Below, in pieces: positions 5,417 through 32,897 of a DNA stretch of 64,000 bases. The notes under the pieces were generated by a model. The model did not search any database and had not been told where the DNA came from. It saw only the letters and a list, made by a program, of their open reading frames with translations. This DNA comes from an uncultured Candidatus Saccharibacteria bacterium (GTDB taxonomy: Bacteria > Patescibacteriota > Minisyncoccia > HO2-45-28). The position numbers and the translations under genes are program-made. Position 1 is the stretch's first letter; each line of letters begins with the position of its first letter. The stretch spans positions 5,194 through 69,193 of the forward strand of contig CAZNNT010000001.1 of assembly GCA_964574495.1 (NCBI GenBank), read 5' to 3'.

Positions 5417-5959
5417 CTATAATACATACTCCCAGCCTGGTTTCCAGGATTTTGTTTTTCGCCAATCTTCGGCGAACGCCTCATCCCATGTTTTATTTTT
5501 AAGCAAAACTTCAAGGGCGAGCTGCGGGGCTTTATGCGAAACTAAGGCGACGCTTTTGCCGTCGTAATTTTGTTTTAAAAATTCAAGAAAATCGGCAACA
5601 CGCGTTTTTACATCCTCGTAGCTTTCGCCGTCGGGAAATTTTTCGGTTATCATTTTTTCTTGCATCGGCTCGACAATTTCAGACGAGTGGCCGTTAAACT
5701 TGCCGTAATTGCACTCGCGCAATCTTTGGTCGGGGATAATTGGTGCCACTCCTTCAAAAACTAGTTTTGCGGAGTCAACTGCCCGTCTCAAGTCGGAGCA
5801 AAAGACAACATCAAATTTTTTGTCTTTGATTTGGTCTTTTAGTTCAATAGATTGTTTTACACCAAGCTCCGAAAGCCCGACGTCAGACCACCCGGACGAG
5901 ATTCCTTTCTCGTTATCCTTAGTCGTTCCATGTACGAAATAAGTTATTTTGATTGGCAT
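5417..5959 (-). CDS. Histidine phosphatase family protein (phosphoglycerate mutase-like)
   Basis: The N-terminus (ITYFVHGTTKDN) carries the HG catalytic histidine motif variant of PGAM-like phosphatases. Length is 180 aa. Confidence 0.55.
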   Translation of the reverse strand: MPIKITYFVHGTTKDNEKGISSGWSDVGLSELGVKQSIELKDQIKDKKFDVVFCSDLRRAVDSAKLVFEGVAPIIPDQRLRECNYGKFNGHSSEIVEPMQEKMITEKFPDGESYEDVKTRVADFLEFLKQNYDGKSVALVSHKAPQLALEVLLKNKTWDEAFAEDWRKTKSWKPGWEYVL

Positions 5960-6396
5960 TATTTATTAAACTCAATATATTCTTTAACCCCCCTCAGCCA
6001 GCCTCCTTTGAAAAATTTTTCGGGTTTAAAATTGTTTGGGTCAACCCAAAGCAATTCCGAGTGTCTTTCCGAAGTTTTGACTTCGCCACTTTTCAATTCA
6101 CTCTCATAACCGATGGCAAATATTCTAACGGTGGGATTGCCCGGCGCATGTTCGACTCTTTCATGCCTCATAAAAATGATCGGCTCGCCGATGGTGTATT
6201 TGATGTCTTTACCCAGCTCCTCCGTCATTTTGCGTTCGATAATTTCATCCAAAGGTGTTTCGAACTCGTCTTTTTTGATTCGTCCTCCGGGCAAATCCCA
6301 GTCGCCAAAGCTATCTTTAAGTATTAAAAGTTTGCCGTCTTTTTTCAAAAAAACTTTTACCGCCACAAAATATTTTTCTTTTTCTTCTGTATCCAT
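5959..6396 (-). CDS. NUDIX hydrolase
   Basis: LPGGRIKKDEFETPLDEIIERKMTEELG is a Nudix-box-like segment (LPGG...E...ER..TEELG). Confidence 0.75.
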   Translation of the reverse strand: MDTEEKEKYFVAVKVFLKKDGKLLILKDSFGDWDLPGGRIKKDEFETPLDEIIERKMTEELGKDIKYTIGEPIIFMRHERVEHAPGNPTVRIFAIGYESELKSGEVKTSERHSELLWVDPNNFKPEKFFKGGWLRGVKEYIEFNK

Positions 6397-13084: not shown

Positions 13085-15322
13085 CTACTTGGAAACCGGA
13101 TTTCTTCCGGCCATTATTTCATTAATAAAATATTCTCCAGATGCCTTAAAACCGGTGTCAAGTTCAATGGCGCGCTTAAGCTCCGCGATTGCCTTATTCG
13201 GCTCCCCAAGCTCCATATAAGTCGCGCCTAAATTAATATGATATTGGGCCTTGTTTGGCTCATTTTTAATGAATTCCAGCCAAAGATCGCGTACCCTGCC
13301 GTACTTTCCGACGCGGGCGTAAGCGTTAATCAATTGCTGGTCAGCCACAATAATAGTGCCAAAACGGTTCGTCAAAGCCCTTTCTCCCTCTTCTTGGCGG
13401 CCGCTGAAAATGGCTATTGTCGCAAAATTTTTAACGGCCTGGTCGTATTCGGGAGCAAGCTCATAGGCCTCTTTTACCGCCTCGTAGGCCTTTTGCTGAT
13501 TACCGAGATTAATATAACTATCTGCCAGCAAAAAAAGAATCTGCTGTTTTTTGGGCGAAAGCTCAAGCGCTTTTTCAACCGAATGTAAAGCGTCTTCATT
13601 ACGGCCCGCGTTGGCATACATAGCCGACAAAAAAAGATACCCCCTTGCGTCATGCGGAAACGCCTCAACTTGACGCTCAAGCTCACTTACGGAAAATTGA
13701 TTAAGTTTGTCCTTTAAATGTTGGGCGATATTTGCCTTAACAACCGAGTTAGCATAAGCGCTTAACTGTTCTCGTGCTTCTCCTGTCCCAAATGTCCGAT
13801 AACCAAATACCTTTTCGAAATCGGACAAAATTAAATCAACATTTTGTCTTTGAATATTAATGTCCTTTAAGGCCTGTAAAAGCCCCGTATTGGCCGATAT
13901 GGGTTTGATATTTAAAAAATATAAAGAGAATATCAGCGCGAAAATCACAAACGCGGACGCAAACGAACGCGCCGGCGTTATCTCAAGCATGCCAAGAGCT
14001 AAGCTCTCCCCATTTTTGCCAAGAGCTAAGCTCTTGGCGCTTTTGGTATCATTAGTAGAAAGATGGTGAATAAAGGCCAAAACCGAAAAAAATAAAATGT
14101 AGGATATGAGATTATCAAAAACAAATAAATTATGGAAAAAATAAGCCGCCAAAAGAGAGGTGAAGATGCCGGCAAACATTAAGTTTTCAGAGTTTTTTTC
14201 AAGGGCGTATTTCTTCCAAAGAAAGTAAATCGCAAAGGCAAATAAAGACAAGTAGGACAATAGCCCCAAAATGCCGCCGCTAGTCAGCCAGTCAAAAATT
14301 ATATTATGCGACCTGTCAAACCACGGCTCTTGCGGCCAAAGTTCGGGCTCATAATACTTGTTAAATACCTGACCGTAATTATCAAGCCCCCATCCCAATA
14401 ACGGCCTTTCCAAAAAACCCTTAAAAGACATCTCCCAAATAGTAAAGCGCGACTGAACCGTCCTGTCCTGCAAAGACAAATTACTGAACCGCGAAATAAC
14501 CGGATTCTCAAGAATAAAATTCTTGTTTTGGACCAATAAAAATAAGCCCGCTAAAATAATTATTCCGGCAATCGCGCTAAAAGAAACTATTTTTATCCGT
14601 TTGTCTTTGGAAAACAGCGACAAAAGCAAAGCAAGCAGAATAATCCCAGACATAAGTCCCAAAATAGCCCCCCTTGTTGCCGTCAAAAAAATGACCGGTA
14701 TTTCCAAGAGCGCCGCGACTCCAAAAACATTTTTTAACCATTTTTTGGGTTCAAAAAAATAAAGAAACGCCGCGATAAAAATATTGAAAAGCATGAAAAC
14801 GGCCATATAGCTCGCGTTGCCGAATGTCCCGTCGGCGCGCGGGCCGCTTTGAACCGATATGGCCAGAACGCCCAGCGCCTGGAGATAGCCGTATAGCCCC
14901 ATCCCCGCGCCGGAGGCGGCAATGGCGTAGAAAAATCTGCGCCAATCCCGTCCGGATTTCAAAACGCTTATCAAAACCAAAAAATAGGCGAAAAGATGCA
15001 GATGGGTTATGAGCCCTTCCATTCGCTCGAAATTAGACCAAAAACTCCGGTAAGGATCGGTGCTGAAAATAGTTGAGAGAGTTAAAACCGCGACAACCGC
15101 CGTAAGAGCCCAGAGAACCGGCGAGGACTTTGGCCGATAATTTTTGTCAACCATTGCCAAAATCAGCCACAAAGCAAAAATTATCTCAACAAAGATGCGG
15201 AAAAAAAATCCCTTTCCCGCAATAAACGGGAAAAACATAACCTTGGAAACAAAAAAAGGCGCTATAAGCACGATTGCCAAAAGGCCGGCCCAAATCGCCC
15301 ATTTCAGATATTTAGACAACAT
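13085..15322 (-). CDS. O-antigen ligase/polymerase-like (Wzy_C) polytopic membrane protein with C-terminal TPR repeats
   Basis: Roughly 12 TM helices with a large periplasmic loop of the Wzy_C/WaaL type (ATRGAILGLMSGIILLALL). The C-terminal ~300 aa contain several TPR-like 34-aa repeats (ALELSPKKQQ..., YELAPEYDQA..., AIELDTGFKA...). Confidence 0.6.
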   Translation of the reverse strand: MLSKYLKWAIWAGLLAIVLIAPFFVSKVMFFPFIAGKGFFFRIFVEIIFALWLILAMVDKNYRPKSSPVLWALTAVVAVLTLSTIFSTDPYRSFWSNFERMEGLITHLHLFAYFLVLISVLKSGRDWRRFFYAIAASGAGMGLYGYLQALGVLAISVQSGPRADGTFGNASYMAVFMLFNIFIAAFLYFFEPKKWLKNVFGVAALLEIPVIFLTATRGAILGLMSGIILLALLLSLFSKDKRIKIVSFSAIAGIIILAGLFLLVQNKNFILENPVISRFSNLSLQDRTVQSRFTIWEMSFKGFLERPLLGWGLDNYGQVFNKYYEPELWPQEPWFDRSHNIIFDWLTSGGILGLLSYLSLFAFAIYFLWKKYALEKNSENLMFAGIFTSLLAAYFFHNLFVFDNLISYILFFSVLAFIHHLSTNDTKSAKSLALGKNGESLALGMLEITPARSFASAFVIFALIFSLYFLNIKPISANTGLLQALKDINIQRQNVDLILSDFEKVFGYRTFGTGEAREQLSAYANSVVKANIAQHLKDKLNQFSVSELERQVEAFPHDARGYLFLSAMYANAGRNEDALHSVEKALELSPKKQQILFLLADSYINLGNQQKAYEAVKEAYELAPEYDQAVKNFATIAIFSGRQEEGERALTNRFGTIIVADQQLINAYARVGKYGRVRDLWLEFIKNEPNKAQYHINLGATYMELGEPNKAIAELKRAIELDTGFKASGEYFINEIMAGRNPVSK

Positions 15323-15393
15323 CTATGTATAATACGCCTCTATCAAAAATAAACAAACCCGCCACATCTGTGGCGGGTTAACGCTGAAATTTA

Positions 15394-16542
15394 TTACAAA
15401 AAATTCACATGCAGCGGCTTCGGTCCTGTCGCGGGCTGAATCCGCTTAATACCTCTCACATGCTCATCAAGCGCCACGCTCACATAGTGCTGAATGGGCA
15501 GTGTGCCCATCATTGTCTGGGCGTTAAAAGCGGGAGACGCCAGATAAGCCATGGCTCTCCAGTAGCGCTCCGACCGAAAGATGTCAATGAATCTCTCTTC
15601 GGTAAAGTTGCCGATATGCAGTTTTGAATATCGGGCGTTGAAAAACATCCCCGAAGGCGCCACAAGGCCGCTGCCGCTGATTTGCAGGAGAAACGCCGGC
15701 CCGTAGAAACGCCTGTACGGCATATTTCCTCCGTCGCGTATTTTATCCCATTTAACGATGACCTTCGTCTGTTCCGTGCTCATTCTTTCCGCTTGAGTCA
15801 GAAGGCCGTATAATTCCTGATATTTACTGTAATCAATGCCCAGCGAGCCCACTTCATCGTCCGAGCAATGTTTAATCACGGCATAGTCAGCGCCGAGATC
15901 CAAACCCAATTGCGCGAACGGTATGATTTCCTCTCCGAATCGGGGCATAAGCACCATCTGAATCCCAAGAGTCACTTTCAAGCCCAGTTTCCTTTTTAAT
16001 TCAACGGCGTATCTGATGTTATTCATCGCGCGGTCAAATACATATGTGTGATCTTTCGCCGGCTTTTTATGGTACATAATGGAGGTGTAACTTTCGGGCC
16101 GGCCTGCGGCAACGGTGAATCGCACCCATGTAAGATACGGGAGGACTTGCTCAATTTTATCCGGTTCCCACTCCCAGCCATTTGTCGCGTTAGCCACATC
16201 AATGCCGAGATCGGCCAGATACCGGATAAAAGGCGCGTATGCCTTTGACAAAGTGCTTTCGCCGTCCGAAACCAAAGATACGCTACGCACGCCGATTTCT
16301 TTAAAATCGTCCGCCAGACGCAGCGCAAGGTCGGGCGTGATACGTTCACGCGTCTGTGATTCCTGCATCATCGCGTAACAAAATTCGCACGAAGACCCGC
16401 AAGCGCGGGTTAACGCCATATCAACGCCCACGGGCGCTATGCGCTCGCCGGCTTCCCAGGCCTCCACGCGGTCAAAGTGATAAGCCAACTTATGCGAATC
16501 AAGAATTAAAGCGCCTTCGCGCGTCTGAACGGCTAAACTCAT
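15394..16542 (-). CDS. Radical SAM enzyme, unknown substrate
   Basis: CGSSCEFCY (CxxxCxxC) at residues 47-54, followed by the glycine-rich SAM-binding segment VSLVSDGES. No SPASM-type C-terminal cysteine cluster. The gene looks GC-rich relative to its neighbours. Confidence 0.7.
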   Translation of the reverse strand: MSLAVQTREGALILDSHKLAYHFDRVEAWEAGERIAPVGVDMALTRACGSSCEFCYAMMQESQTRERITPDLALRLADDFKEIGVRSVSLVSDGESTLSKAYAPFIRYLADLGIDVANATNGWEWEPDKIEQVLPYLTWVRFTVAAGRPESYTSIMYHKKPAKDHTYVFDRAMNNIRYAVELKRKLGLKVTLGIQMVLMPRFGEEIIPFAQLGLDLGADYAVIKHCSDDEVGSLGIDYSKYQELYGLLTQAERMSTEQTKVIVKWDKIRDGGNMPYRRFYGPAFLLQISGSGLVAPSGMFFNARYSKLHIGNFTEERFIDIFRSERYWRAMAYLASPAFNAQTMMGTLPIQHYVSVALDEHVRGIKRIQPATGPKPLHVNFL

Positions 16543-16877
16543 GACTTCACCTCCACTCCGCGCAGATTGCGCAAGGAATTGCGATCCCCCAGCGGATTCA
16601 GCCAGACAACAAGGCCCGGGTCAATATTTTCTTTCAGAAACGCTTCCAGATCCAAGAGCAAAGTGCCGCGCTTGCCGGCTGGCAGCGCCTCTCTAAGTTC
16701 CACGATAATCTCGCCGTTTTTCTTTGCCCTGATTACATTGACACTGCCTTTAAAATCTGCCGACCCGTCAATCAAAGCATCAGAAATTTTGCAGAGCCGC
16801 TCTTCATCCGTCAACCCCTGCCACTCGAAACTCGCAGATGGCGTCTCGACGTCTGCGTACTTTAGTATTTCATTCAA
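16539..16877 (-). CDS. Small hypothetical protein (112 aa), translationally coupled to the radical SAM gene
   Basis: Its stop overlaps the radical SAM start as ATGA (16539-16542). Same apparently GC-rich composition. No recognisable motif. Confidence 0.45.
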   Translation of the reverse strand: MNEILKYADVETPSASFEWQGLTDEERLCKISDALIDGSADFKGSVNVIRAKKNGEIIVELREALPAGKRGTLLLDLEAFLKENIDPGLVVWLNPLGDRNSLRNLRGVEVKS

Positions 16878-16993: not shown

Positions 16994-17500
16994 CTAAAAT
17001 TTCAAGGTGGTTCCATTAATAGCGGCTCTTAATATTTCGGATGCGTGTGTAAAGCAACGGACAAATTTTAGCTTTCCACCTAAAGATTCGATAATTCGCT
17101 TATCTTTATTTAAACCGCTCTTTGGATTTTTTAGCCGCGGCTTTGCATCATCGCCTTTTACATAAACATCCGGTTGAATCGCTTTCATAACCTTCCACGG
17201 ACCAATATCTCCACAGATTGTAACAAAATCTACGACCTCTAATTCCGCCAGCCATTTTAACCTAATAATTTCTGGAAAAATCAATGGTCGCCTTTTAACA
17301 TCTATTTTTTTAATATATCTATCGTCCACAACCGAAACCACTAACACTTCGCCATATTTCTTGGCGTCTTGAAAATATTGAATATGGCCCCAGTGAATTA
17401 AATCAAAAACCCCATGGCAAAGAACTATGCGTTTTTTCTCACTATGAAGTTTAATAGCTATCTTTTTAAGCTGGGAAATATTCTTAATTTTGGATTTCAT
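16994..17500 (-). CDS. HIGH-motif nucleotidyltransferase (cytidylyltransferase-like; RfaE/HldE domain II-type sugar-phosphate adenylyltransferase)
   Basis: IVLCHGVFDLIHWGH is the (T/H)xGH nucleotidyltransferase signature. 168 aa. Paralogous to 25690..26178 and to the N-terminus of 18337..19863. Confidence 0.7.
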   Translation of the reverse strand: MKSKIKNISQLKKIAIKLHSEKKRIVLCHGVFDLIHWGHIQYFQDAKKYGEVLVVSVVDDRYIKKIDVKRRPLIFPEIIRLKWLAELEVVDFVTICGDIGPWKVMKAIQPDVYVKGDDAKPRLKNPKSGLNKDKRIIESLGGKLKFVRCFTHASEILRAAINGTTLKF

Positions 17501-17628
17501 AAATTATCGTTCACAAAAGGGAATAATTTCTAAATACCATATTAAACTCTAACAAAAATAAACTCCCGATACAATATCGGGAGAAATTTTGAATAAAACA
17601 CACTTATTAGAACTGCTTTAATAAACCA

Positions 17629-18279
17629 TTAATAAGATATTTTTAAAATCCCCACCTCCTTTGCCACCTCATCAAGCATCCTGGAAGAAATTAGGTCAAA
17701 TTTTTTTCTACCATCATCCCTATCTTTTAAAATGTCCGTCAAATCAAAAATGCAATTTATAGAATATTCACACAAACCCCACTCTCCTCTTATACCATCT
17801 TCAGGAATATCTTCTGAATTGATCTGTACAATGCCACCAAAAAAAGTATTGTTCAGTAAAGAGTTTAAAATCCATTCAACAAGAACGATTTTAATTTTTG
17901 AGGGATGAACTACCAAACCAATTTCTTCCTCCATCTCCCTTGCCATTGCGTTTTTTGCTAGATCTTTTGAAAAACAAATGAGCGGATCTTCAGAAATCCT
18001 TCCACCCGCCGGCTCAATTGTCTCACTTTCAACTGCAACCCTAAACTGTTTAACCATTACTATCTTCCACCTATTATCAAAAGGATCGTGAAAATAAGGA
18101 ACAACCACGCAACCATCAGCCCCATAAGCAACGCCGCGACTAGAAATGAATGTTCTTTTTAAAGTGCCGGAATTTACTTCAACCGTCATTTGGGGCCATC
18201 TATAAGTTATAAATTTATCTTGAAACCCAGGCTTATTGGAACACAAAGTTGTTTCTCCAACCTTCCTAAAACTACCCAT
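17629..18279 (-). CDS. NUDIX hydrolase (ADP-sugar/nucleotide-sugar pyrophosphatase-like)
   Basis: Nudix box PAGGRISEDPLICFSKDLAKNAMAREMEEEIG. Confidence 0.7.
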   Translation of the reverse strand: MGSFRKVGETTLCSNKPGFQDKFITYRWPQMTVEVNSGTLKRTFISSRGVAYGADGCVVVPYFHDPFDNRWKIVMVKQFRVAVESETIEPAGGRISEDPLICFSKDLAKNAMAREMEEEIGLVVHPSKIKIVLVEWILNSLLNNTFFGGIVQINSEDIPEDGIRGEWGLCEYSINCIFDLTDILKDRDDGRKKFDLISSRMLDEVAKEVGILKISY

Positions 18280-18336
18280 TCCACATCCTCCCCTTATTTA
18301 GGCAGCAAAGAGCTCCTATAAGCATAGCACTTTTTT

Positions 18337-19863
18337 CTATTCAAGCAAGTAGCCGATTCTGCCGAATAGTTCTTCGCGCTCAACCGAGTTTTTGTTGCCG
18401 ACAATATCCACCGCGATTGACGCGGCAACGCTTCCCACAAACGAGGTTAAATCAATATCAAATCCCGCCGCGACGCACGGCGCGGAAATGCACAAAAAGG
18501 CATCACCAGCTCCAACGGCGTCAGTAATTCTGCCCGCAAGCGAGGGAATTCTTTTTATTTTTCCGTTTTTATCGCGAGCTATAAGGCCGAGGTGGCCCAA
18601 AGTTACAACCATCTGCTTTGGAGATATCTTTTCAAAAAGTTTCTCGGCAACTCTTTCAACGGGTGAATAATCGTCGTGCGCCGCGAGCCGCGCCTCCAAT
18701 TCATCCATAGAGACATAATCGGCTTTTGAATATTTCGTAATATAGTTAAAACCGGCATTTCCGCTGTTTGTCTGCGCGGTTGCCGCAAGAAATTTGGACT
18801 TAGACAAAATAAGTTTTATTAAATCGGGCGAGAATAAGCCGTGTCCGTAGTCCACCGCCACAACCAAATCAAAGTCGGCTATTTTATTTGAGAGATAACT
18901 TTTTATTTTATCTTTTACCGAGGCCGGGATGAACCCCTTGTCAAACTCGTATTCTTCAAAAAATTTCACAAAAGAACCCTCGTCAAGAAAACGCCTCTTG
19001 ACGATTGAGCGTTGGTTGGGATAAGAAAAAATTTTTGTTTTTATGTTCGGCTTCAACCTTTTAAGCGCGTTCTTTTCGGAACTGCCGTCTCCAAACATTG
19101 TTACCAGCTCAACATTTCCGCAAACAGAAGCAAGGTGGTTGGCGCACGCCAAAATGCCGCCGGCGAATTCTTCTTTTTTCTTGAAGTGAGTGCTTACAAC
19201 ATGCGATTTTGCCGGTTTGCCCAAAGGGGAAACATACCTGTATTCGTCTATTATGGACTCTCCGATTACCAGCGCTTTTATTTTCTTTAATTTTTCCAAA
19301 TTCATTAAAATATCCGCGACATTGTATTTTTTCTTAAAATTGGAAAGGAAGGCGGTTGCCTCGTCCGGCACCGCTCCAAAATGCTTGTTCAAAATGTTTT
19401 CTGAAGGAATTTGCAGGGTTTTGGTAAAAACCATTTTCCCGCCAAAACCCTCAACTATTCTCTTATCCAAACCAACGCCGCTTTCGGGAGTAGTAAGCTG
19501 TGATTTGGAATCGGCGCCTTTAACATAAATATCGGGCCGCAGTTTTTTAATAATTTCCCACGGGCCGAAGTCATTGCAAAAAACGGCGTAATCAACGCAG
19601 TCCAATAAGGCGATTGAATTGGCTCGCACAATTTCGTTAAAAACCGGGCGCTTCAATCCTTTGCGGACAAAGTCATCCGAAATAATTGAGACAATTAAAA
19701 TATCTCCCAGTTTTTTGGCATTAGCCAGATAATGAAGATGGCCGTGATGGAACAAATCAAAAGCGCCGTGAGCCAAAACAATTTTTTTGCCCGCGTCTTT
19801 ATATTTGCGAATAAGCGGCTTTAGATTTTCTATGTTTTTAATCTTTGAATTAAATTCGGGCAT
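18337..19863 (-). CDS. Bifunctional sugar-phosphate nucleotidyltransferase (N-terminal) / PfkB-family sugar kinase (C-terminal); HldE-like with inverted domain order
   Basis: The N-terminus has IVLAHGAFDLFHHGH (HxGH). The C-terminal ~330 aa are a ribokinase/PfkB fold with the DAVGAGDAF anion-hole motif. Confidence 0.7.
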   Translation of the reverse strand: MPEFNSKIKNIENLKPLIRKYKDAGKKIVLAHGAFDLFHHGHLHYLANAKKLGDILIVSIISDDFVRKGLKRPVFNEIVRANSIALLDCVDYAVFCNDFGPWEIIKKLRPDIYVKGADSKSQLTTPESGVGLDKRIVEGFGGKMVFTKTLQIPSENILNKHFGAVPDEATAFLSNFKKKYNVADILMNLEKLKKIKALVIGESIIDEYRYVSPLGKPAKSHVVSTHFKKKEEFAGGILACANHLASVCGNVELVTMFGDGSSEKNALKRLKPNIKTKIFSYPNQRSIVKRRFLDEGSFVKFFEEYEFDKGFIPASVKDKIKSYLSNKIADFDLVVAVDYGHGLFSPDLIKLILSKSKFLAATAQTNSGNAGFNYITKYSKADYVSMDELEARLAAHDDYSPVERVAEKLFEKISPKQMVVTLGHLGLIARDKNGKIKRIPSLAGRITDAVGAGDAFLCISAPCVAAGFDIDLTSFVGSVAASIAVDIVGNKNSVEREELFGRIGYLLE

Positions 19864-19975
19864 AAATTAAATAAATACGGTTAAAATAAAAATACCGCAT
19901 ATTTAATCTATCATGAAATCTTTTCACAAATCAATATTAACAAAATGTCAATTTTATGACCTTATATAAAAGAGA

Positions 19976-20007
19976 AAGCCGTCCCTTTGGGACGGCTTTA
20001 TTTTCTT
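19976..20007 (-). terminator. Rho-independent terminator downstream of the E1-beta gene
   Basis: AGCCGTCCC-TTT-GGGACGGCT stem-loop flanked by T-rich runs on both strands. Confidence 0.65.
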
Positions 20008-20013
20008 AATTCC

Positions 20014-20994
20014 TTAGCGGTTGGCGGCAAGCCGGAACGCCCGCGTCGCGATATCCGAAGAGCTCGGATGGTAATTTCCAACAAGATATTTGCTCGCGGG
20101 GCAAGGCCAGCCCGGAAGGCCGATGCGCGCCGGCGGAGCTTTCAACTTATCAAGAGCGCCTCTTTCCAAAACCGCGCAAATGACCTCGCTTGAAACCCCG
20201 AATTCCTTCCAGCCGATATCAACTACGAGCAGTCGCCCCGTTTTATGCGCTGATTCCGCAATCGTATCAATATCCAGAGGCCTGACCCAGCGCAAATCTA
20301 TCACTTCGGCCGAGACGCCTTTTTCTTTAAGAATTTCGGCCGCCTTAAGCGCGTCTTTAACAGCAACGGACAAGGCGACGATCGTCACATCGTCTCCCTC
20401 CGCAACAACGCTGGCGCCGAACGGAGCCCGATAATACGCTTCCGGCACAAATCCCTCTTCATCAAGAAGCAGACAGTGCTCCAAAATGATTACCGGCTCA
20501 TCGTCGCTAATAGCCGTTATAATCATCCCTTTGGCATCGGCCGGGGTTGCCGGCATTCCGACTTTAACTCCCGGAAAATGGGCAAAGATTGCCTGCAAAC
20601 TCTGCGAATGCTGAACTCCTTCCCCGGTTTTTCGGGCGATGAAGCTCAAAATGGCAATCGGAATTTTATGCTTTCCGCCGGAAGCAAAGCCGAGTTTGGC
20701 CGCCTGGTTAAACATCTGATCCATAGCCAGAAGCATAAAATCGTTACGCTGGTGAATTAAAACCGGCCGAAGGCCGTTTAAAGCCGCGCCAATCGCAATG
20801 CCGGTCAAACCGTTTTCGGAAAGAGGCGTATCAACCACCCTATGCTCTCCGAACCTTTTGAAAGCCGGCAGCACTTGTCCGTAAACGCCCCGAATTCCAT
20901 CAACTCCCTCGCCCATCAAAAAGACGTTTTCATCTCTTTCCATAGACATAAGGAGCCCCGAAGAGGCCGCTTCTTTATAGGTCATTTTAGCCAT
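20014..20994 (-). CDS. Thiamine-diphosphate-dependent E1 component beta subunit (pyruvate/acetoin dehydrogenase E1-beta, transketolase-like)
   Basis: Start MAKMTYKEAASSGL chosen; it overlaps the E1-alpha stop by 8 nt. Typical E1-beta/transketolase pyrimidine-binding and C-terminal domains (GEGVDGIRGVYG, PIAILSFIARKTGEGVQHSQS, EVIDLRWVRPLD). Confidence 0.8.
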   Translation of the reverse strand: MAKMTYKEAASSGLLMSMERDENVFLMGEGVDGIRGVYGQVLPAFKRFGEHRVVDTPLSENGLTGIAIGAALNGLRPVLIHQRNDFMLLAMDQMFNQAAKLGFASGGKHKIPIAILSFIARKTGEGVQHSQSLQAIFAHFPGVKVGMPATPADAKGMIITAISDDEPVIILEHCLLLDEEGFVPEAYYRAPFGASVVAEGDDVTIVALSVAVKDALKAAEILKEKGVSAEVIDLRWVRPLDIDTIAESAHKTGRLLVVDIGWKEFGVSSEVICAVLERGALDKLKAPPARIGLPGWPCPASKYLVGNYHPSSSDIATRAFRLAANR

Positions 20995-21958
20995 GGCGCT
21001 TGCCACAAACATCCGGCGGCGACGGTTCTGGGCTTCCCAAAGCAAATTTCTCCGCACGATTGATCTCGTCATTGATTTCGGCCTCCATGTCCCGCGTCTC
21101 TTTTTCTGAAAAAGCGCCGCTATGCATTTTTAAAGGATCTCGAGCCAGCCATTTTTCGCCTTCCTCACGGCTTCTATACCCCAAGTCCCAGTCCTCGCCA
21201 ACGCCCCAATGCTCTTTCGAACGGTAAGTACAAATTTCCAAAAAAGCCGGAGCGCGTCCTCTGGCGCGCGCCGCCAGTTCTTGTGCCGCTTTGTAAACGG
21301 CCAAGACATTATTTCCGTCTTCTTCTCCGACTCTCAAAGCCATGATGCCGTGCGGCCGCACCCGCTCAATGATTGAGGCGTACGGCTGACGTTTTAATAT
21401 CGGCGAGTGGGTCGCGTAAAGATTGTTTTCGCAAACAAACAATACCGGCAGGCGATGAACGGAAGCAAAATTCAAACTTTCCCAAAAAATCCCTTCTTCC
21501 ACCGCGCCGTCGCCAAAAAAGGCCGCCGCGATTTTATCTTCTTTTTTGATTTTAAAAGCAAGGGCAATGCCCACGGCAATCGCGATACTCGCGCCGACTA
21601 TGGGGGCCGCGACCGTAAAACCCGCTTCGTCATCGGTCAGATGCATCGTTCCGCCGTATCCTCCGGCGCAGCCGGTAGCGCGTCCGCAAAGTTCGGCTAG
21701 CATGTTGGCCAAATCGCCGCCTTTGGCGAGGTAATGCCCGTGGCAGCGATGAGTTGAGACAACTTTATCCTGTTTATCCAGTACGCTCATCACGCCCACG
21801 GCGGCCGCTTCCTGACCGATGGAAAGGTGCACCGGAGCTATAATATGTCCGGATTTAAAAAGTTCGGTTATTTTCTCTTCAGCTCTTCGTATGCGAAGCA
21901 TCCGGTAAAAAAGGACTTTTAGAATTTCTTTCGGCATTACATGACTCTCCTTTTTCAA
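20987..21958 (-). CDS. Thiamine-diphosphate-dependent E1 component alpha subunit (pyruvate/acetoin dehydrogenase E1-alpha)
   Basis: TPP-binding motif GDGAVEEGIFWESLNFASVHRLPVLFVCENNLYA; upstream HRCHGHYLAKGG and GGYGGTMH. SD AAAGGAGAG precedes the ATG. Confidence 0.85.
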   Translation of the reverse strand: MKKESHVMPKEILKVLFYRMLRIRRAEEKITELFKSGHIIAPVHLSIGQEAAAVGVMSVLDKQDKVVSTHRCHGHYLAKGGDLANMLAELCGRATGCAGGYGGTMHLTDDEAGFTVAAPIVGASIAIAVGIALAFKIKKEDKIAAAFFGDGAVEEGIFWESLNFASVHRLPVLFVCENNLYATHSPILKRQPYASIIERVRPHGIMALRVGEEDGNNVLAVYKAAQELAARARGRAPAFLEICTYRSKEHWGVGEDWDLGYRSREEGEKWLARDPLKMHSGAFSEKETRDMEAEINDEINRAEKFALGSPEPSPPDVCGKRHG

Positions 21959-22020: not shown

Positions 22021-23154
22021 TTATTTCTGCATATTTACAAAATCGGCGATGCATTCGGCAACATAGACAATCTGAGCTTTAGTCAAATACTGATGCACCG
22101 GCAGGGTAAGGATTTCAAACGACTGGCGCTCGCAATTCGGAAAATCCCCGAGCTTATAACCAAGATGGCCTGCCGCTTCCTGCAGGTGAATAGGTATCGG
22201 GTAATGCACCTTAGTATCAATACCGCGCTCTTCTAAAAGAAACTTTTGCAGCTCATCGCGTTTGCCGTCAAGAACCCTGATTACATAAGTGTGATAAACT
22301 TGCTTTTTGTTCGCGGGCCTCGGGGGCAAAACAACATGTGGATGAAACGGCTTGAGCAGCTCATCATAAAGCGCGGCGTTGGCAATTCTTTTTTCGGTAA
22401 TATCCTCGGCATGTCCCACGAGACAATTTAAAACGGCGGCCGCGGTTGAATGCATTCGCTCGTTTACGGAAAAAAATTCAACCTCATCACGGTTTTTCAT
22501 GCCGTGATTGCGCCATTTGGCGACCTTATCCGCGAGCCATTTGTGGTCGGTTACAACCGCTCCGGCATCGCCCCATCCGTTAAGATTTTTCAGCGGGTGG
22601 AAACTGAACTCTCCGGCGATACCGAGATGGCCGACTCTTTTTCCGTCAACTTCGGCGCAAACCGCCTGAGCCGCGTCCTCAACGACATAAAGATTCCGCC
22701 TTTCGGCAATATTGTTGATCGCGGTCATGTCGGCCGGACAACCGGTCAAATGCACGGGAAGAATTGCTTTTGTGCGCCCGGTTATCGCTTTCTCAATCTT
22801 GCTGACGTCAATTTGATACTGCTCGTCAACATCCACAAAAACAACTCTTGCTTTGACCAAATCAATGGCCGCCGCGGTTGCGATAAAACTATTGGGAACG
22901 GTAATCACCTCATCTCCCGGGCCGATTTCAAGCGCCTCTAAAATAGCGATAAGAGCGGCCGTGCCTGAGTTTAAGCCAATGGCGTATTTCGCGCGGCATA
23001 GCGCGGCAAATTTTTCTTCAAACTCGCCAACCGAACGGCCTAAAGTGAAATCGCCTCTTTTGGCTACTTTATCAATGGCCGCAAGAATTTCTGCTCTTTT
23101 CTCCTTACAAAACTGAGTCGTCAGATACGAATACGGGACTTTTATTTTACTCAT
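22021..23154 (-). CDS. DegT/DnrJ/EryC1/StrS-family PLP-dependent sugar aminotransferase
   Basis: N-terminal LGRSVGEFEEKFAALC, a glycine-rich SGTAALIAILEAL segment and a DAAQA-type site; 377 aa. Confidence 0.85.
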   Translation of the reverse strand: MSKIKVPYSYLTTQFCKEKRAEILAAIDKVAKRGDFTLGRSVGEFEEKFAALCRAKYAIGLNSGTAALIAILEALEIGPGDEVITVPNSFIATAAAIDLVKARVVFVDVDEQYQIDVSKIEKAITGRTKAILPVHLTGCPADMTAINNIAERRNLYVVEDAAQAVCAEVDGKRVGHLGIAGEFSFHPLKNLNGWGDAGAVVTDHKWLADKVAKWRNHGMKNRDEVEFFSVNERMHSTAAAVLNCLVGHAEDITEKRIANAALYDELLKPFHPHVVLPPRPANKKQVYHTYVIRVLDGKRDELQKFLLEERGIDTKVHYPIPIHLQEAAGHLGYKLGDFPNCERQSFEILTLPVHQYLTKAQIVYVAECIADFVNMQK

Positions 23155-24185
23155 ACTTTTCCCTCCAGGATTAGATTTTTCATCACCGCGATATTGCGGT
23201 ATTTCGGGTTTTCCGGATCGGGAATGCGCCCGTCAAAAAACGCCCGGCATAAATTGTGAATGGCTGATTTGATTCCGAATTCCGGCAGCCAGCCAAGCTC
23301 CCGCTTGATTTTTTCAGAGGAAATGTGATAAGAACGCAAATCGTTTGTCGAAACAACTTCAATCTCAACAGTTCCTCTGCCGGTATATCTTTGCACGATT
23401 TCTTTGACCGTTTCGGCTATTTGCATGACGGTAAAATTATCAAAGCCGGCGTTATAAACCTTTCCGCCGATTATTTCACGCGGCTCGCTGACCAATCGCG
23501 CGTAAAGGTTGGCCATATCCTCAATATGGATATTCGGCCTTTTCTGCTCCCCGCCAGAAACCTTAATTTTATTTTCGGTCAAAGCCGAAATCGTCAGATC
23601 GTTAACCACGACATCCAGACGCAGGCGCGGCGACCAGCCGCAAACGGTTGCCGGACGCAAAATCACCCATTCTATTCTATCCTGCGGAATCATTTGCAAT
23701 TCCATCTCGCAAAACGCTTTGAATTTGGAATAATCGGTTATCGGCTCAAGCGCCAAATCCTCCGTAACTTCAACATCTCCCTTAACCCCGTAAACGCTGG
23801 AAGACGAGGCGTAAATAAAACGCCTGACTTTTGCCGCAAGCGCGGCGTCCAAAACCCGCCGGAAAGCGTCATAGTTTATGGAACGCCCAAGTCGGCGATC
23901 AAGCTCAAAGCTCGGATCATTTGAAAGGCAGGCCAGATGAATAACCGCGTCGCAATCGAACATCAAATTTTGCAAGTCGCAATTTCGGATATCTCCTTTA
24001 AAAAGCTGGAGAGAACTATCGGTGTCATACGGACCTATCGGCCTTGTCAAACCGTTAAAAACGTTTTCACCGAACCAAAAAGTGTCAATTACGCTTACAG
24101 GATAATGAAGAGCCAAAAGTTTTGGCACAAGAGCGCTGCCGACATAGCCGGCTCCGCCGGTAATTAAGACCCTTTTTCTTTCCAC
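23151..24185 (-). CDS. NAD-dependent epimerase/dehydratase (extended SDR)
   Basis: TGGAGYVGS Rossmann motif, a catalytic SSS...YxxxK region (YSKFKAF), 344 aa. A 4-nt overlap with the downstream DegT gene suggests an operon. Confidence 0.8.
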   Translation of the reverse strand: MERKRVLITGGAGYVGSALVPKLLALHYPVSVIDTFWFGENVFNGLTRPIGPYDTDSSLQLFKGDIRNCDLQNLMFDCDAVIHLACLSNDPSFELDRRLGRSINYDAFRRVLDAALAAKVRRFIYASSSSVYGVKGDVEVTEDLALEPITDYSKFKAFCEMELQMIPQDRIEWVILRPATVCGWSPRLRLDVVVNDLTISALTENKIKVSGGEQKRPNIHIEDMANLYARLVSEPREIIGGKVYNAGFDNFTVMQIAETVKEIVQRYTGRGTVEIEVVSTNDLRSYHISSEKIKRELGWLPEFGIKSAIHNLCRAFFDGRIPDPENPKYRNIAVMKNLILEGKV

Positions 24186-24325: not shown

Positions 24326-24913
24326 TTATTCGCCTCTAAATTTGTCAACAAAATCCAAAATCCAATTGCATATGAAAAGATGCGCGCTTTCCACGTGGCG
24401 GTATGAATCGGACGGAATGTAAAAATTAATATCGCCCAGTTTCCGCAAAGGATTGTCCTGGCCGAATCCCGACATGGTTACGACGCCCGCGCCCTTGCCC
24501 CGCATTGCGCCAACGGCGTTGATAATGTTTTGCGACTTGCCGGAGCTGGATATGGCAATTAAAAGGTCTTTTTTTGTTCCCAGAATTTTAAGGGGCTGGG
24601 AAAAAATATTTTCATACCCGACATCATTTCCCATACAGGTAAGCAAAGAATGTTCCGTTGGCGAAAAAGCCGCGATGCCGTGCGTCCGCATAAAATCTGT
24701 CGCTTGATGGCTCGCAATGGCGGCGCTTCCGCCGTTGCCAACGAACACAATCCGCCCCCCTTCTTTATTTGCCTGCAAAATTGACTTAATAGAGCCCTTG
24801 ACCGCATCAGCCAGATCCATATCAAAGCCACTCTTGTCCGTTGTTTTAACGCTTCGTAAACACTCTGCGAATCCATCCAGGTATGAGTGCAAATCCTTTT
24901 TACTAAAATCCAT
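24326..24913 (-). CDS. gmhA: SIS-domain sedoheptulose-7-phosphate isomerase (phosphoheptose isomerase)
   Basis: GGRIVFVGNGGSAAIASH SIS motif about 40 aa from the chosen start (MDFSKKDL). About 195 aa. A second SIS-typical ISSSGKSQNIINA segment is present. The longer track ORF would overlap the GT2 gene. Confidence 0.7.
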   Translation of the reverse strand: MDFSKKDLHSYLDGFAECLRSVKTTDKSGFDMDLADAVKGSIKSILQANKEGGRIVFVGNGGSAAIASHQATDFMRTHGIAAFSPTEHSLLTCMGNDVGYENIFSQPLKILGTKKDLLIAISSSGKSQNIINAVGAMRGKGAGVVTMSGFGQDNPLRKLGDINFYIPSDSYRHVESAHLFICNWILDFVDKFRGE

Positions 24914-24924: not shown

Positions 24925-25683
24925 TTAAACCGTCGTCCCCGGCTTTTTGTTTCCTGATTTCGAGGGAAAATATACGCGAAAAAATAGTTTTCTCGCAGTG
25001 CCGGCAATTTCCAAAACATTTTTCCATTTTAAAAGTCGTGATTTTCTCAAACCCATTTTTCCATAACCTTGTTCTCTTATATACATCGGCACCTCAATAT
25101 AAGAAGCATTCTTAATTTTAAGCAACTGCACCAATATCTCCATCATAAAAGACGGGCCGTTGCTTGACATCGCGACATTTTCCAAAAGAGGCCTTCTAAA
25201 AAAACATGTTCCGTTAAAATATTTAAGATTGGCGCCGAACATTATATTAAATATCGCGGTGTATGCTAAAGAAAGAATCCTTCGCGAGAACGGCCTAACC
25301 TGCGGGTTTGCGGTATAAGGAATAATAATATCTTTTTGACCGATTTGGCTAAAAATATTATCCATAGTTTCCGAAAGAGTCTCATTGTCCCCCGGAAAAT
25401 ACCCAACATAATTTTTTGAGGATTCTAAAACTCCGCGCCGAAAACAATATCCGATTCCTTGATTTGGATTATTGCGGATTTTCAAAATTCGGCTGTCTTT
25501 GGCGCATAGGCCATCCATAATTTCGCCGGTTCTGTCTTTACTGCCGTCATCAATTAAAATAATTTCAAAGTCGTCAAAACCGTTTTTTTTAAGATGTTCC
25601 GTAACCATGTTCACGGTATCCGGCACATTTTTTTCTTCATTGAGCGCGGGAATAATAACCGATATTGAGGGCTTCAGAGCCAT
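24925..25683 (-). CDS. Family 2 glycosyltransferase (polyprenyl-phosphate sugar transferase/DPM1-like)
   Basis: VIIPALNEE and IILIDDGSKD (DxD context) are typical of GT2_2 enzymes; 252 aa. Confidence 0.75.
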   Translation of the reverse strand: MALKPSISVIIPALNEEKNVPDTVNMVTEHLKKNGFDDFEIILIDDGSKDRTGEIMDGLCAKDSRILKIRNNPNQGIGYCFRRGVLESSKNYVGYFPGDNETLSETMDNIFSQIGQKDIIIPYTANPQVRPFSRRILSLAYTAIFNIMFGANLKYFNGTCFFRRPLLENVAMSSNGPSFMMEILVQLLKIKNASYIEVPMYIREQGYGKMGLRKSRLLKWKNVLEIAGTARKLFFRVYFPSKSGNKKPGTTV

Positions 25684-25689
25684 AAATAA

Positions 25690-26178
25690 TTATTTATTCT
25701 CCAAAATCCGGTTAATAATATCCGTTGTGGATAATTTTTCATCTTTGGTGTATAAAATTTCTCCGCCTATAGAACGCATCGCTTCTCTTTCTACCGCTAT
25801 GCCCGGCGTATCTTTATTTATATAATCCGGCCCCTTAATGTAATAATCGGGCTTAAAAATTTTTATTAACTCAACGGCCGTTTTGTAAGGGCTTACCATC
25901 GTAAAATCCACTGCTTTGATATTTGATACCATATAAGCTCTTTGCTCTTCATTAAAAATGGGTCTATAAGGGCCTTTTCTTTTATTTACAAATTTATCGC
26001 AGGTAACGGCCGCCACCAAAACATCGCAAAGTTTTTTTGCCGAATTAAAGTGCATTATATGCCCCGCGTGCAGCAGGTCATAGCCGCCGCAGCATAAACC
26101 CACGGTTTTGCCCTCTTTTTTTAAATTTCCGATAACTTTTTTTAATTCCTGGAGCTTGAGTGAGCCCAAAAATTTCAT
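25690..26178 (-). CDS. HIGH-motif nucleotidyltransferase (RfaE domain II/cytidylyltransferase-like), third paralog
   Basis: VGLCCGGYDLLHAGH signature; 162 aa. Confidence 0.7.
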   Translation of the reverse strand: MKFLGSLKLQELKKVIGNLKKEGKTVGLCCGGYDLLHAGHIMHFNSAKKLCDVLVAAVTCDKFVNKRKGPYRPIFNEEQRAYMVSNIKAVDFTMVSPYKTAVELIKIFKPDYYIKGPDYINKDTPGIAVEREAMRSIGGEILYTKDEKLSTTDIINRILENK

Positions 26179-26231: not shown

Positions 26232-26269
26232 ACACCCGTGATAAAAACGGGTGTTCCTTTTTTTATTTT
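26232..26269 (-). terminator. Rho-independent terminator (bidirectional)
   Basis: ACACCCGT-GATAAAA-ACGGGTGT flanked by A6 upstream and TCCTTTTTTTATTTT downstream. Confidence 0.75.
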
Positions 26270-27270
26270 CCCAGATGTTGGAACCACGCTTTGGTGGCTT
26301 TCTCAATTCCTTTGGGTGTCCAGACCGGAGCGCCGCGCCAATAATCAATGTTTTTCAGAAGTTCTTTAACGCCTTCCTCAAACGAAACCTCCGGCGACCA
26401 GCCAAGCTTTGATTTAATCTTTGCGATATCGGCGCAAGTTACATCCGGCTCACCGGGCCTTTTCGGCAAATTCACGGTTTCTTTCGCCCCCAAAAGCCGG
26501 ACTATTTCATTTACGCTCCGAGGCGCGCCCGAGCCGACATTGAAAATTTCTCCCGAAATATCCGATTCAGCCGCGGCCAGAAACGCGCGAGCGACATCTG
26601 AAACGAAAACAAAATCCCTTTTTTGCTCCCCGTCGCCGACCACTGTCAGCGGCTTATTATAAATCAATTGCGCCAGAAATATTCCGAAGACCGCGCCGTA
26701 AGCTCCGGAAGTGCGCGATCGCGGACCGTAAACATTGAACATACGCAAAGAAATTGCCGGCAAGCCGTAAACCTTGTTCCACTGCATCACCAATTCTTCG
26801 CCAAGACGCTTGGTCAAAGCATAGGGATATTGCGGTGAAATTTCAGCGCTTTCCGGAGTCGGATAAATATCGGGAATGCCGTAGCAGGAAGAGGAGGCCG
26901 CGTAGATAAATCTTTTAACACCGTACTGGATAGAGGCCTCTAAAACGTTCAGCGTTCCCTCAACATTGTTTTCAAAGTAATGTCTCGGAAACTCAATGGA
27001 CGGTACTATATCGGCTAGGCCGGCCAGATGAAAAACCCAATCGGCTCCGGCAAATGCCGACGCCACTGTCATATCGCGAATACTCATTCTAATAAAGCTC
27101 ATATTCTTGGCTTCAGGCAAAAGTTCCATCTGCCGAATATTTTCAAAACGGCCCGTAGTCAGACTATCCACCACAATAACTTTATGGCCTTTTTTAAGAA
27201 GCAGTTCAACCAAGTGGCTGCCGATAAAACCGGCCCCGCCCGTCACAACAGCTGTTTTCCGCTCTTCCAT
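26263..27270 (-). CDS. NAD-dependent epimerase/dehydratase (extended SDR; possible nucleotide-sugar 4,6-dehydratase or 4/6-epimerase)
   Basis: Start MEERKTAVVTGGAGFIGSHLV is preceded by AGGAAAGGAGAAGAA. SSSCYG...YALTKRLGEE (SxnYxxxK). The 32 upstream codons in the track ORF lack an SD. Confidence 0.8.
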   Translation of the reverse strand: MEERKTAVVTGGAGFIGSHLVELLLKKGHKVIVVDSLTTGRFENIRQMELLPEAKNMSFIRMSIRDMTVASAFAGADWVFHLAGLADIVPSIEFPRHYFENNVEGTLNVLEASIQYGVKRFIYAASSSCYGIPDIYPTPESAEISPQYPYALTKRLGEELVMQWNKVYGLPAISLRMFNVYGPRSRTSGAYGAVFGIFLAQLIYNKPLTVVGDGEQKRDFVFVSDVARAFLAAAESDISGEIFNVGSGAPRSVNEIVRLLGAKETVNLPKRPGEPDVTCADIAKIKSKLGWSPEVSFEEGVKELLKNIDYWRGAPVWTPKGIEKATKAWFQHLGK

Positions 27271-27423
27271 TTCTTCTCCTTTCCTGATGAAAAGAACTTT
27301 GAAAACTAGCGGCCTCGGTGGCCGCGAATCCCCAACAAACCTATCACAAAAGGCGGATTTTATCAATCAAAATCTTTAATATTTACGGATTACTGCTTAT
27401 TTGTTCATCCAGTTCCAAAATAA

Positions 27424-31739: not shown

Positions 31740-31772
31740 TATCACGCCTCGGCGATTTGTTGCCGGGGTTTT

Positions 31773-32891: not shown

Positions 32892-32897
32892 ATGAAT

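Follow-up and report, generated by a model that had tools for sequence, protein, structure and literature searches.

What sugar would be activated by an HldE-like enzyme whose two halves stand in reverse order, and what would such an enzyme serve in a member of the Candidatus Saccharibacteria? The question is raised by 64,000 nucleotides of an uncultured bacterium of this group (contig CAZNNT010000001.1 of assembly GCA_964574495.1, positions 5,194 to 69,193), hereafter the window. There, an earlier note had described a gene fusing an N-terminal nucleotidyltransferase (NTase) to a C-terminal PfkB kinase, together with further NTases and a GmhA-like isomerase. All the gene models that it named are present on the minus strand, and those of the fusion, of two stand-alone NTases (NTase1 and NTase3), of the SIS-domain isomerase, of a 216-amino-acid (aa) open reading frame (ORF), of a short-chain dehydrogenase/reductase (SDR) called SDR344 and of a histidine phosphatase are identical to public NCBI gene calls. 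The fusion is one of many HldE-like bifunctional enzymes that make up a large family, spread over several phyla and encoded in a conserved cassette. With the isomerase, it forms the front end of this cassette, which is conserved from Patescibacteria to Alphaproteobacteria and which probably yields a seven-carbon sugar, activated and carrying an amino modification, that goes into a surface glycan.

The fusion gene (18337..19863, minus strand) encodes 508 aa, in which Pfam recognizes a CTP_transf_like domain (PF01467) at residues 31-123 followed by PfkB (PF00294) toward the C-terminus. The NTase domain spans about residues 25-160 (19384..19791) and carries HHGH at residues 39-42 (19738-19749) and IPSEN at 19396-19410. 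The kinase domain spans about residues 196-508 (18340..19278) and carries DAVGAGDAF at residues 448-456, with the catalytic GAGD at 18502-18513. Reference hldE, gmhA and gmhB sequences were taken from Escherichia coli MG1655. By tblastn, the C-terminal NTase of HldE (residues 326-438) matches window positions 19830-19498, that is the N-terminus of the fusion, and the HldE kinase (residues 3-285) matches 19305-18439, in its C-terminal part, so that the domain order is truly reversed, as the earlier note had claimed. Identity to HldE is 21% in the kinase and 40% in the NTase. Between the two domains lies a family-specific helical linker that is not found in HldE (about residues 161-195; 19279..19383), for which the family alignment gives the consensus YPxEAxxFLxxFRxxY. 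An AlphaFold (AF2) model built from a 22-sequence alignment (mean predicted local distance difference test score, pLDDT, 85.4; predicted template modelling score 0.81) forms this linker as helices 167-179 and 182-194, residues 153-163 having a pLDDT below 50.

Both halves resemble heptose enzymes more than any other family. The best-scoring kinase family for the C-terminal domain is rfaE_dom_I (TIGR02198; 98.1 bits over residues 189-500, below the cut-off of 345), whereas ribokinase (TIGR02152) reaches 35.3 bits in the C-terminal third only, below its cut-off of 299. In the same way, the NTase domain scores 109.4 bits with rfaE_dom_II (TIGR02199; below the cut-off of 181.5), and the whole fusion scores 156.4 bits in two stretches with the HldE model NF008454 (below the cut-off of 521). 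When the modelled kinase was compared with solved folds by Foldseek, the top seven were all HldA of Burkholderia cenocepacia (E 6e-21 to 1e-19, target TM-score 0.79-0.84, sequence identity 17-19%). Ribokinase came as the first non-HldA fold (E 1.8e-16), with other PfkB kinases from there on. A grouping of the kinase with ribokinase or adenosine kinase, which had been set in advance as refuting a heptose route, was thus not found. The best sequence match of the NTase domain in the PDB is 5x9q, which we take to be HldC. The catalytic GAGD motif of the kinase is clearly intact as judged from the alignment, in which D454 is invariant, and the kinase domains of the family share a near-invariant QTNSxNxGFN where HldE has LIDPKG. 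By their sequences, the fusion kinase, the NTases and the isomerase are best regarded as sister subfamilies of the heptose enzymes and not as members of them.

A database search with the fusion scored 1,076 proteins at E<=0.001, and at least 1,000 protein clusters have its domain order. The Pfam order PF01467 then PF00294 was found in 120/120 of the best of these homologues, and the reversed architecture is therefore neither chance nor an assembly artefact. The view of the fusion as a local oddity has to be given up in consequence, since this domain-architecture search uncovers a large multi-phylum family with a conserved cassette. Those homologues that bear a name go by 'PfkB family carbohydrate kinase' or by 'rfaE bifunctional protein nucleotidyltransferase chain/domain', and the named ones among the matches listed are from Patescibacteria, Elusimicrobiota, Omnitrophota, Nitrospirota and Chloroflexota. 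Scanning one genome per species, which sets a lower bound on the distribution, brought in many Alphaproteobacteria, among them the cultured Bradyrhizobium sacchari p9-20. A plasmid search found the fusion in Azospirillum oryzae KACC 14407 and Solidesulfovibrio carbinolicus DSM 3852. A distant member (29% identical) from a Pseudomonadota metagenome-assembled genome (locus L024, 9845-11455) has HxGH wholly replaced by DFST and still adjoins SDR367-like and SIS genes. To our knowledge, no member of the swapped-order enzyme family or of the cassette has been characterised. Searches of the literature on heptose in Patescibacteria, or on this combination of enzymes, returned nothing relevant and no paper on the cassette.

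Mapping the window proteins onto related loci (given L numbers here) delimited a conserved core composed of an SDR367-like dehydrogenase/epimerase, the fusion, the SIS isomerase and an SDR344-like protein. These core genes recur together in more than 20 loci of at least six phyla. The cassette occurs in Patescibacteria, Elusimicrobiota, Omnitrophota, Nitrospirota, Desulfovibrionales and Alphaproteobacteria, including the cultured Azospirillum oryzae and Bradyrhizobium sacchari, and the core is also carried by annotated Azospirillum oryzae and Solidesulfovibrio plasmids. SDR367 is the most conserved partner, being 56-64% identical across phyla. The second SDR of the core is about 51% identical to SDR344, and the SDRs of the cassettes in Alphaproteobacteria, in L008 and in L023 match it at about 50-53%. 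Around the core vary one or two DegT aminotransferases, a thiamine pyrophosphate (TPP)-dependent E1αβ enzyme or split transketolase, a small family 2 glycosyltransferase (GT2), NUDIX proteins, and radical S-adenosylmethionine (radical-SAM)/SPASM and B12-radical-SAM proteins. The window holds the full set, with its gene order rearranged. On the Azospirillum plasmid, as annotated in RefSeq, every cassette gene carries a generic name only; its orthologues include WP_149200361.1 (SIS), WP_149200362.1 (fusion), WP_149200360.1 (SDR) and WP_149200354.1 (NUDIX).

The isomerase (24326..24913, minus strand; 195 aa, SIS_2) was said in the earlier note to be a phosphoheptose isomerase. Its 13 best PDB matches are indeed all phosphoheptose isomerases (best E 6e-23), though its score of 91.5 bits with gmhA (TIGR00441) lies under the cut-off of 209. 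It keeps the phosphate- and sugar-binding residues of GmhA (N52-S55, N93-D94 and S119-S124) and differs from the E. coli enzyme by E65 to D, Q172 to E and H180 to N; E65 and H180 are the catalytic residues. The cassette SIS proteins of the window and of 11 loci all have Glu at the Q172 position and lack 5 residues after E65, and the H180 position is occupied by H, N, D, Q or M. This pattern suggests a subfamily with a relocated catalytic base.

Two further genes point to what would follow activation. SDR344, an extended SDR and core cassette member (23151..24185, minus strand), is closest, among PDB entries, to 6vo6/6vo8, which scores 124 bits where the runner-up scores 81; we take 6vo6 to be Cj1427. 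This Campylobacter protein is documented as a GDP-D-glycero-α-D-manno-heptose C4-dehydrogenase (PMC10680097, PMC9978623), and SDR344 is accordingly our candidate for a nucleoside diphosphate (NDP)-heptose C4-dehydrogenase. Enzymes of the Cj1427 type are marked by tightly bound NAD and by a turnover that depends on α-ketoglutarate. The next gene (22021..23154, minus strand) overlaps it by 4 nt and encodes a DegT/PseC-type sugar aminotransferase (PF01041 3.9e-102; PseC 224 bits), of the PseC/WecE type that acts as a 4-aminotransferase. Homologues 47-51% identical to it are found in L008, L018, L020, L021 and L022. The best match to 6vo6 and the overlapping 4-aminotransferase together suggest that C4 is first oxidised and then transaminated, which would give a 4-amino-4-deoxy-heptose nucleotide. 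In the literature on biosynthesis that could be searched, only the septacidin family had a sugar of this type (PMC9978623).

Taken together, it is very probable that isomerase, anomeric kinase and NTase act in this order to give some NDP-sugar. That the cassette would be an NDP-heptose pathway for a surface glycan is the reading we favour, at a confidence somewhat above even, and its NDP-heptose product is probably a 4-amino-heptose. In the scheme that homology suggests throughout, the SIS protein would isomerise a ketose phosphate, most likely sedoheptulose-7-P, to aldoheptose-7-P, and the fusion kinase, with its intact GAGD, would phosphorylate the anomeric O1. The 7-phosphate would be removed by a phosphatase encoded away from these genes, after which an NTase, most likely NTase3, would make the NDP-heptose. 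The Cj1427-like SDR344 would then oxidise C4, and the translationally coupled DegT would transaminate the product to NDP-4-amino-4-deoxy-heptose. Further tailoring would fall to SDR367, the TPP-dependent E1αβ and radical-SAM enzymes, before GT2 and the GT-C/Wzy_C-type proteins put the sugar on a cell-surface polymer.

The non-canonical heptose route of the earlier note is upheld in part by these data: the swapped HldE-like system and the GmhA-like isomerase stand, and the word 'heptose' itself is a reading of homology, all scores being below the cut-offs.

For the 7-phosphatase, no match to E. coli GmhB was obtained by tblastn at E<=1 in the window or in cassette loci L003-L024, L046 and L047, and jackhmmer with L050-L052 added retrieved only the HAD genes of those loci. 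Nor was a HAD domain present in about 60 window ORFs scanned, so the absence of a HAD-type GmhB reported earlier holds. A His_Phos_1 gene lies directly beside SIS in L003/L004, and a HAD_2 protein is encoded in L050 and L052. The histidine phosphatase of the window (5417-5959) is 29-30% identical to the L003 gene next to SIS. It forms, with a second NUDIX gene (5959-6396), a pair outside the glycan island (5417..6396, minus strand), both members of which were recognized by Pfam as the earlier note had proposed. This pair is separated from the island by dnaX at 8383-9447, a gene that bounds the island in L003 too. The earlier note had raised the PGAM-like histidine phosphatase as a possible replacement for GmhB; given its place outside the island, any link to the pathway would be conjectural. 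Another recurrent ORF of 223-251 aa has no Pfam match and carries RHAPK…GHSP motifs reminiscent of histidine phosphatases (L003 11584-12300; L005 15028-15699; L050 2600-3298 and L051 6122-6817, the last two on the minus strand). Its position in L003, directly following the fusion, is the one that a NUDIX gene takes in the window, and it may be considered a possible substitute for GmhB.

Pfam and NCBIfam confirm both stand-alone NTase genes: NTase1 (16994..17500, minus strand) scores 100.7 bits with rfaE_dom_II and NTase3 (25690..26178, minus strand) 116.2 bits over the whole model, both under the 181.5 cut-off. All three NTases give partial matches of 31.9-39.4 bits with TagD (TIGR01518; below the cut-off of 165) and so do not group with glycerol-3-phosphate cytidylyltransferases. 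NTase3 is 34% identical to the NTase domain of E. coli HldE; NTase1 has 45% identity with the fused domain and 32% with NTase3. Heptose-1-P nucleotidyltransferases (HENases) are characterized by HxGH and (F/L)xxGxSTT motifs (PMC11461863). NTase3 has a canonical HAGH and LSTT, and is the only one of the three with STT (KLSTT, without the Gly); the fusion reads IPSE at this site, and NTase1 combines HWGH with HAS in place of HST. On an alignment of 118 fusion-family members, HPGH is found in 88/118 and FSS[ST] at the phosphate-binding motif matching the HldE STT in 84/118. The window fusion and its 23 closest relatives have H[HY]GH and mostly [IV]HS[TI], the window itself having IPSE. About 50 stand-alone homologues of NTase1 are Patescibacteria proteins of 160-190 aa with HxGH intact, and [IM]HST is strongly conserved in about 45 of them. 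In a neighbour-joining tree with weak deep nodes, NTase3 falls close to the clade of FSST type, and NTase1 clusters with the fused domains of the window clade. The three NTases are therefore not equivalent and belong to two lineages, FSST-type (NTase3) and HST (the fused domain and NTase1), the latter being specific to Patescibacteria and accompanied by a NUDIX hydrolase of about 200 aa. NTase3 is likeliest to be the heptose-1-P NTase of the window; for the fused N-terminal domain and NTase1, a second step of nucleotide handling, or partial decay, is probable. We also considered that the fused NTase might be no more than a dead domain and tempered this idea in view of the HST conserved in the roughly 45 stand-alone proteins and of a slight relaxation only (mean identity within the window clade of 55% in the NTase domain versus 58% in the kinase).

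Related loci indicate what may happen to such duplicated domains. The second histidine of HxGH has been lost (HPGI or HPGV) from the kinase-adjacent NTase of L010, of L019 and of the tridomain proteins P0025 and P0026. These fusions always have an intact extra NTase, either immediately upstream, in a gene abutting the fusion (L010 806-2808; L019 2611-4708), or fused in front, in the NTase-NTase-kinase arrangement of P0025 and P0026. L005, L050 and L052, for their part, have two fusion paralogs each, one with GAGD and the other with GAGC, GAGS or GAGN (L005 6417-7943; L050 15465-16988 and L052 17089-18612, the latter two on the minus strand). The Asp of GAGD is the catalytic base of PfkB kinases, and since it is lost, we expect these second paralogs to be kinase-dead; they look like copies that act as NTases only. 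Their NTase motifs are canonical in L005, HRGH is kept in L050, and HRAH stands for HxGH in L052. The remaining fusions show hardly any variation in GAGDAF and QTNSxNxGFN. Such complementary losses read as repeated subfunctionalisation and not as a multiplication of products.

This bears on the suggestion of the earlier note that triplication of the NTase yields several distinct NDP-sugars. In that explanation, the three NTases would all be active and would make different NDP-sugars, or else a single heptose that is linked to different nucleotides or occurs in different isomeric forms. It is favoured by HxGH, which is intact in all three window NTases, by the two NTase lineages conserved side by side in Patescibacteria cassettes, and by the ability of HldE-type NTases to use CTP and UTP besides ATP, as stated in commentaries on Tang et al. 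2024 (PMC11461863, PMC11573728). On the contrary, the fused domain (PSE) and NTase1 (HAS) depart from the HST of their own lineage, the related loci display complementary loss of catalytic residues and not added functions, and a single isomerase and a single kinase would have to feed all three NTases. We regard three active NTases as unlikely, although this account stands somewhat better than the alternatives below; two lineages with subfunctionalisation agree better with the data.

A nucleotide handled twice is a bolder extension of the favoured heptose pathway, and it involves the NUDIX protein. The 216-aa ORF directly downstream of the fusion (17629..18279, minus strand) had been called a NUDIX hydrolase. 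Direct comparison with Pfam does not bear this out, its score with PF00293 being 13.4 bits, below the gathering cut-off of 21.1; its homologues do, since those in L051, L053 and L054 have a Pfam NUDIX match on record. Proteins of 199-218 aa in L050, L051, L053 and L054 share 33-43% identity with the ORF across most or the whole of its length (E 1e-35 to 1e-40), and all of them directly adjoin a fusion gene or a stand-alone HST-type NTase gene; in L053 and L054, it is the HST-type NTase that is adjacent to the NUDIX gene. Compared with the Nudix box consensus GX5EX7REUXEEXGU, the window protein keeps the core REMEEEIGL (RE-x2-EE-x-G) and has a 9-residue insertion upstream, in the loop. A word-indexed database search with it matched only itself and no close relative, and a single-sequence AlphaFold model was unusable (pLDDT 31.6). 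No hairpin separates it from the fusion, with which it is probably co-transcribed. A different, shorter NUDIX type is found in the Azospirillum and Elusimicrobiota cassettes. A nucleotide-sugar pyrophosphatase thus appears, on homology, to be a recurrent cassette partner. Its presence might be explained if a type-I NTase made the NDP-heptose, oxidation and amination followed, the NUDIX protein of about 200 aa cleaved the product back to a sugar-1-phosphate, and the HST NTase re-activated it on a different nucleotide for glycosyltransferases. The full proposal, a GmhB-independent heptose pathway of Patescibacteria that would handle the nucleotide twice and in which a bifunctional enzyme would be repeatedly split into kinase-only and NTase-only pseudo-bifunctional paralogs, is one that we hold to be doubtful.

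Several observations weigh against the favoured heptose pathway and its division of labour among the NTases. All family scores lie under the curated cut-offs, and the enzymes form distinct subfamilies, the substrates of which may differ. The isomerase is substituted at positions that are catalytic in GmhA (E65 = D, H180 = N), and no 7-phosphatase was found encoded in the island or in most cassettes. Moreover, HST-type NTases are probably active, because the motif is strongly conserved in the stand-alone proteins, so that 'decay' would apply only to the local PSE and HAS variants. Within the window clade, the NTase domain evolves at a rate little above that of the kinase.

Some of these points would equally suit the same logic applied to another sugar, namely a non-heptose ketose phosphate, such as octulose-8-P or one of another chain length, built by the TPP-dependent E1αβ or transketolase of the cassette, for which the lincosamide octose pathway offers an analogue. 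Besides the scores of the SIS protein, kinase and NTases, all well under the heptose equivalog cut-offs, this is consistent with the QTNSxNxGFN that the kinase has of its own in place of LIDPKG, with the change of Q172 to E and the variable H180 in the SIS family, and with the recurrent TPP enzyme, annotated as a split transketolase in L006, L047 and L053, which could make the ketose substrate. Yet the closest characterised relatives of the SIS protein, the kinase and the NTases are all heptose enzymes, the kinase by fold too, and the closest solved relative of SDR344, which we take to be Cj1427, acts on a heptose nucleotide. Several Alphaproteobacterial loci also keep the four-gene core without E1αβ in the stretches examined. 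We consider a non-heptose sugar improbable, about as much as the double handling of the nucleotide. Finally, the proposal that the NTases are TagD-like cytidylyltransferases supplying a teichoic-acid-like phosphodiester polymer with its CDP-polyol or CDP-sugar-phosphate donor, with PfkB as an ordinary sugar kinase, would suit a host that is probably a Gram-positive-like bacterium of the candidate phyla radiation (CPR), a cytidylyltransferase-like superfamily most members of which act on primary phosphate esters, and the TagF-like Glyphos_transf genes that adjoin SIS in L051 and L052, but it is very improbable given the scores (TagD 32-39 bits versus 101-116 for rfaE_dom_II; ribokinase 35 versus 98 for heptose kinase), a kinase fold closest to HldA, the absence of any Glyphos_transf gene in the window ORF scans and the presence of the cassette in Gram-negative Alphaproteobacteria. 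The Glyphos_transf genes themselves (L051 1-1012; L052 1383-2750) hint at a teichoic-acid-like acceptor or a phosphodiester linkage.

Compared with known systems, the favoured heptose pathway is closest to that of E. coli HldE, which is the best-scoring curated family for both halves of the fusion: in both, a PfkB kinase with GAGD and an HxGH NTase are partnered by a GmhA-like isomerase. Unlike HldE, the fusion has the reversed order, the family-specific helical linker, IPSE instead of STT and no GmhB partner, and it sits in a tailoring cassette and not among genes for the lipopolysaccharide (LPS) core. HldA and HldC of Burkholderia (4e84, 5x9q) are the closest solved structures, HldA by fold and 5x9q by sequence. 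As in that system, the NTase function can reside in a separate small protein, here NTase3 and NTase1; the differences are that kinase and NTase are fused here and that additional NTases coexist.

Heptose activation in Campylobacter employs a GHMP kinase, GmhB and a GlmU-type guanylyltransferase, with no HldE-type domains. The GDP-heptose capsule pathway of Campylobacter jejuni (PMC10680097) is similar in that an extended SDR oxidises the NDP-heptose at C4 before further tailoring, which there involves epimerases and reductases. It runs without aminotransferase, TPP or radical-SAM steps. Septacidin biosynthesis in Streptomyces starts from an HldE-type ADP-heptose pathway and likewise combines heptose 4-oxidation with a following DegT-type transamination (PMC9978623). 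Unlike in the cassette, the oxidase of that pathway is a GMC flavoenzyme that acts after transfer of the heptose to adenine, and what is made is a natural product and no surface glycan (PMC9978623). The cassette in Bradyrhizobium sacchari p9-20 (L020, NZ_LWIG01000014.1, 8105-18191) has the four-gene core and two DegT genes. The genes for bradyrhizose, an unusual Bradyrhizobium sugar, have been reported as unknown (PMC4743980); the L020 cassette contains aminotransferases, which are not needed for bradyrhizose. The activating enzyme of the septacidin pathway is a tridomain isomerase/kinase/NTase and not an NTase-kinase.

The other cassette genes of the window are all on the minus strand. The TPP-dependent enzyme is encoded by an E1 alpha-like subunit (20987..21937; PF00676 2e-59), homologues of which are found in many cassettes, and an E1 beta or transketolase-like subunit (20014..21045; PF02779 and PF02780), both being public gene calls. 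The small GT2 (24925..25683; 252 aa, PF00535), recurrent in cassettes, is likely a polyprenyl-phosphate sugar synthase given its weak ArnC-like match. SDR367 (26263..27366) is a GalE-like extended SDR with an uncertain start codon, the best PDB matches of which are GalE-type epimerases (197 bits). At the other side of the fusion lies a 382-aa radical-SAM protein with an overlapping upstream ORF of 112 aa (15394..16877; PF04055); it is 47% identical to an ORF of L010 and 29-33% to the radical-SAM/SPASM proteins of cassettes. The end of the island is marked by an O-antigen-ligase-like Wzy_C protein with TPR repeats (13085..15322; PF04932 and TPR), whose ortholog in L003/L004, 65% identical, lies downstream of the fusion gene with one ORF between.

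Nearly every larger intergenic gap of the cluster contains a strong GC-rich hairpin followed by a T-run on the coding strand, as at 19975-19999, 15356-15379, 27425-27450, 24240-24263, 21988-22009 and 17563-17583. Such terminator-like hairpins in the gaps argue for several short transcription units and not for one long operon. They suggest the sub-operons SDR367-NTase3-GT2-SIS, SDR344-DegT, E1α-E1β, fusion-NUDIX, NTase1-112-aa ORF-radical-SAM and Wzy_C-TPR. Third-position GC is 0.31-0.41 in NTase1, the NUDIX-like gene, GT2 and NTase3, versus 0.47-0.59 in the core cassette genes. From the lower values at 16994-18279 and 24925-26178, the cluster is compositionally mosaic.

Elsewhere, the window is a large glycan island with YfhO, PMT_2, Wzy_C and several glycosyltransferase genes, an RmlB-like dehydratase and a sugar C-methyltransferase. 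A set that looks complete for a legionaminic/pseudaminic-type nonulosonic acid (30157-38453, minus strand) lies immediately upstream of the heptose cassette and comprises a PseB/LegB-like dehydratase, DegT, ATP-grasp/PHP, a NeuC-like 2-epimerase, NeuB, a GFO/IDH/MocA oxidoreductase and a CMP-sugar synthetase (CTP_transf_3). The fusion of Solidesulfovibrio (L047) likewise lies among pseB, pseC, pseF and neuB. Farther on (39775-43101, minus strand), a fused HisF/HisH-like amidotransferase of 510 aa is followed by a carbamoyltransferase, a pair typical of acetamidino or carbamoyl decoration of rare sugars. An IS200/Y1-transposase-like ORF lies within the island (48550-49251, minus strand). Between the island and its dnaX flank, an ORF of 271 aa (12107-12922, minus strand) matches bactofilin below threshold (18.9 bits).

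Most of what is known of activated heptoses concerns the LPS cores of Gram-negative bacteria, some capsules and S-layers, and a few antibiotics; these sugars are also innate-immune agonists sensed by ALPK1. The reversed domain order is by itself a modest surprise. More notable are the cassette, its CPR hosts devoid of LPS, the pairing of NTase and NUDIX, and the subfunctionalised paralogs. An abundant, generically annotated and uncharacterised NTase-kinase family here heads a conserved, likewise uncharacterised tailoring cassette, and the system would work like HldE with GmhA. With kinase and NTase halves that decay in complementary fashion, the paralogs offer a tidy case from nature of a bifunctional enzyme undergoing subfunctionalisation. 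If the favoured reading is true, a large unstudied enzyme family extends heptose activation to ultra-small CPR bacteria without LPS, and a widely shared cassette serves a probably amino-modified, elaborated heptose that is unreported in surface glycans. As the cassette is present in the cultured A. oryzae KACC 14407, B. sacchari p9-20 and S. carbinolicus DSM 3852, the pathway is open to genetics and enzymology.

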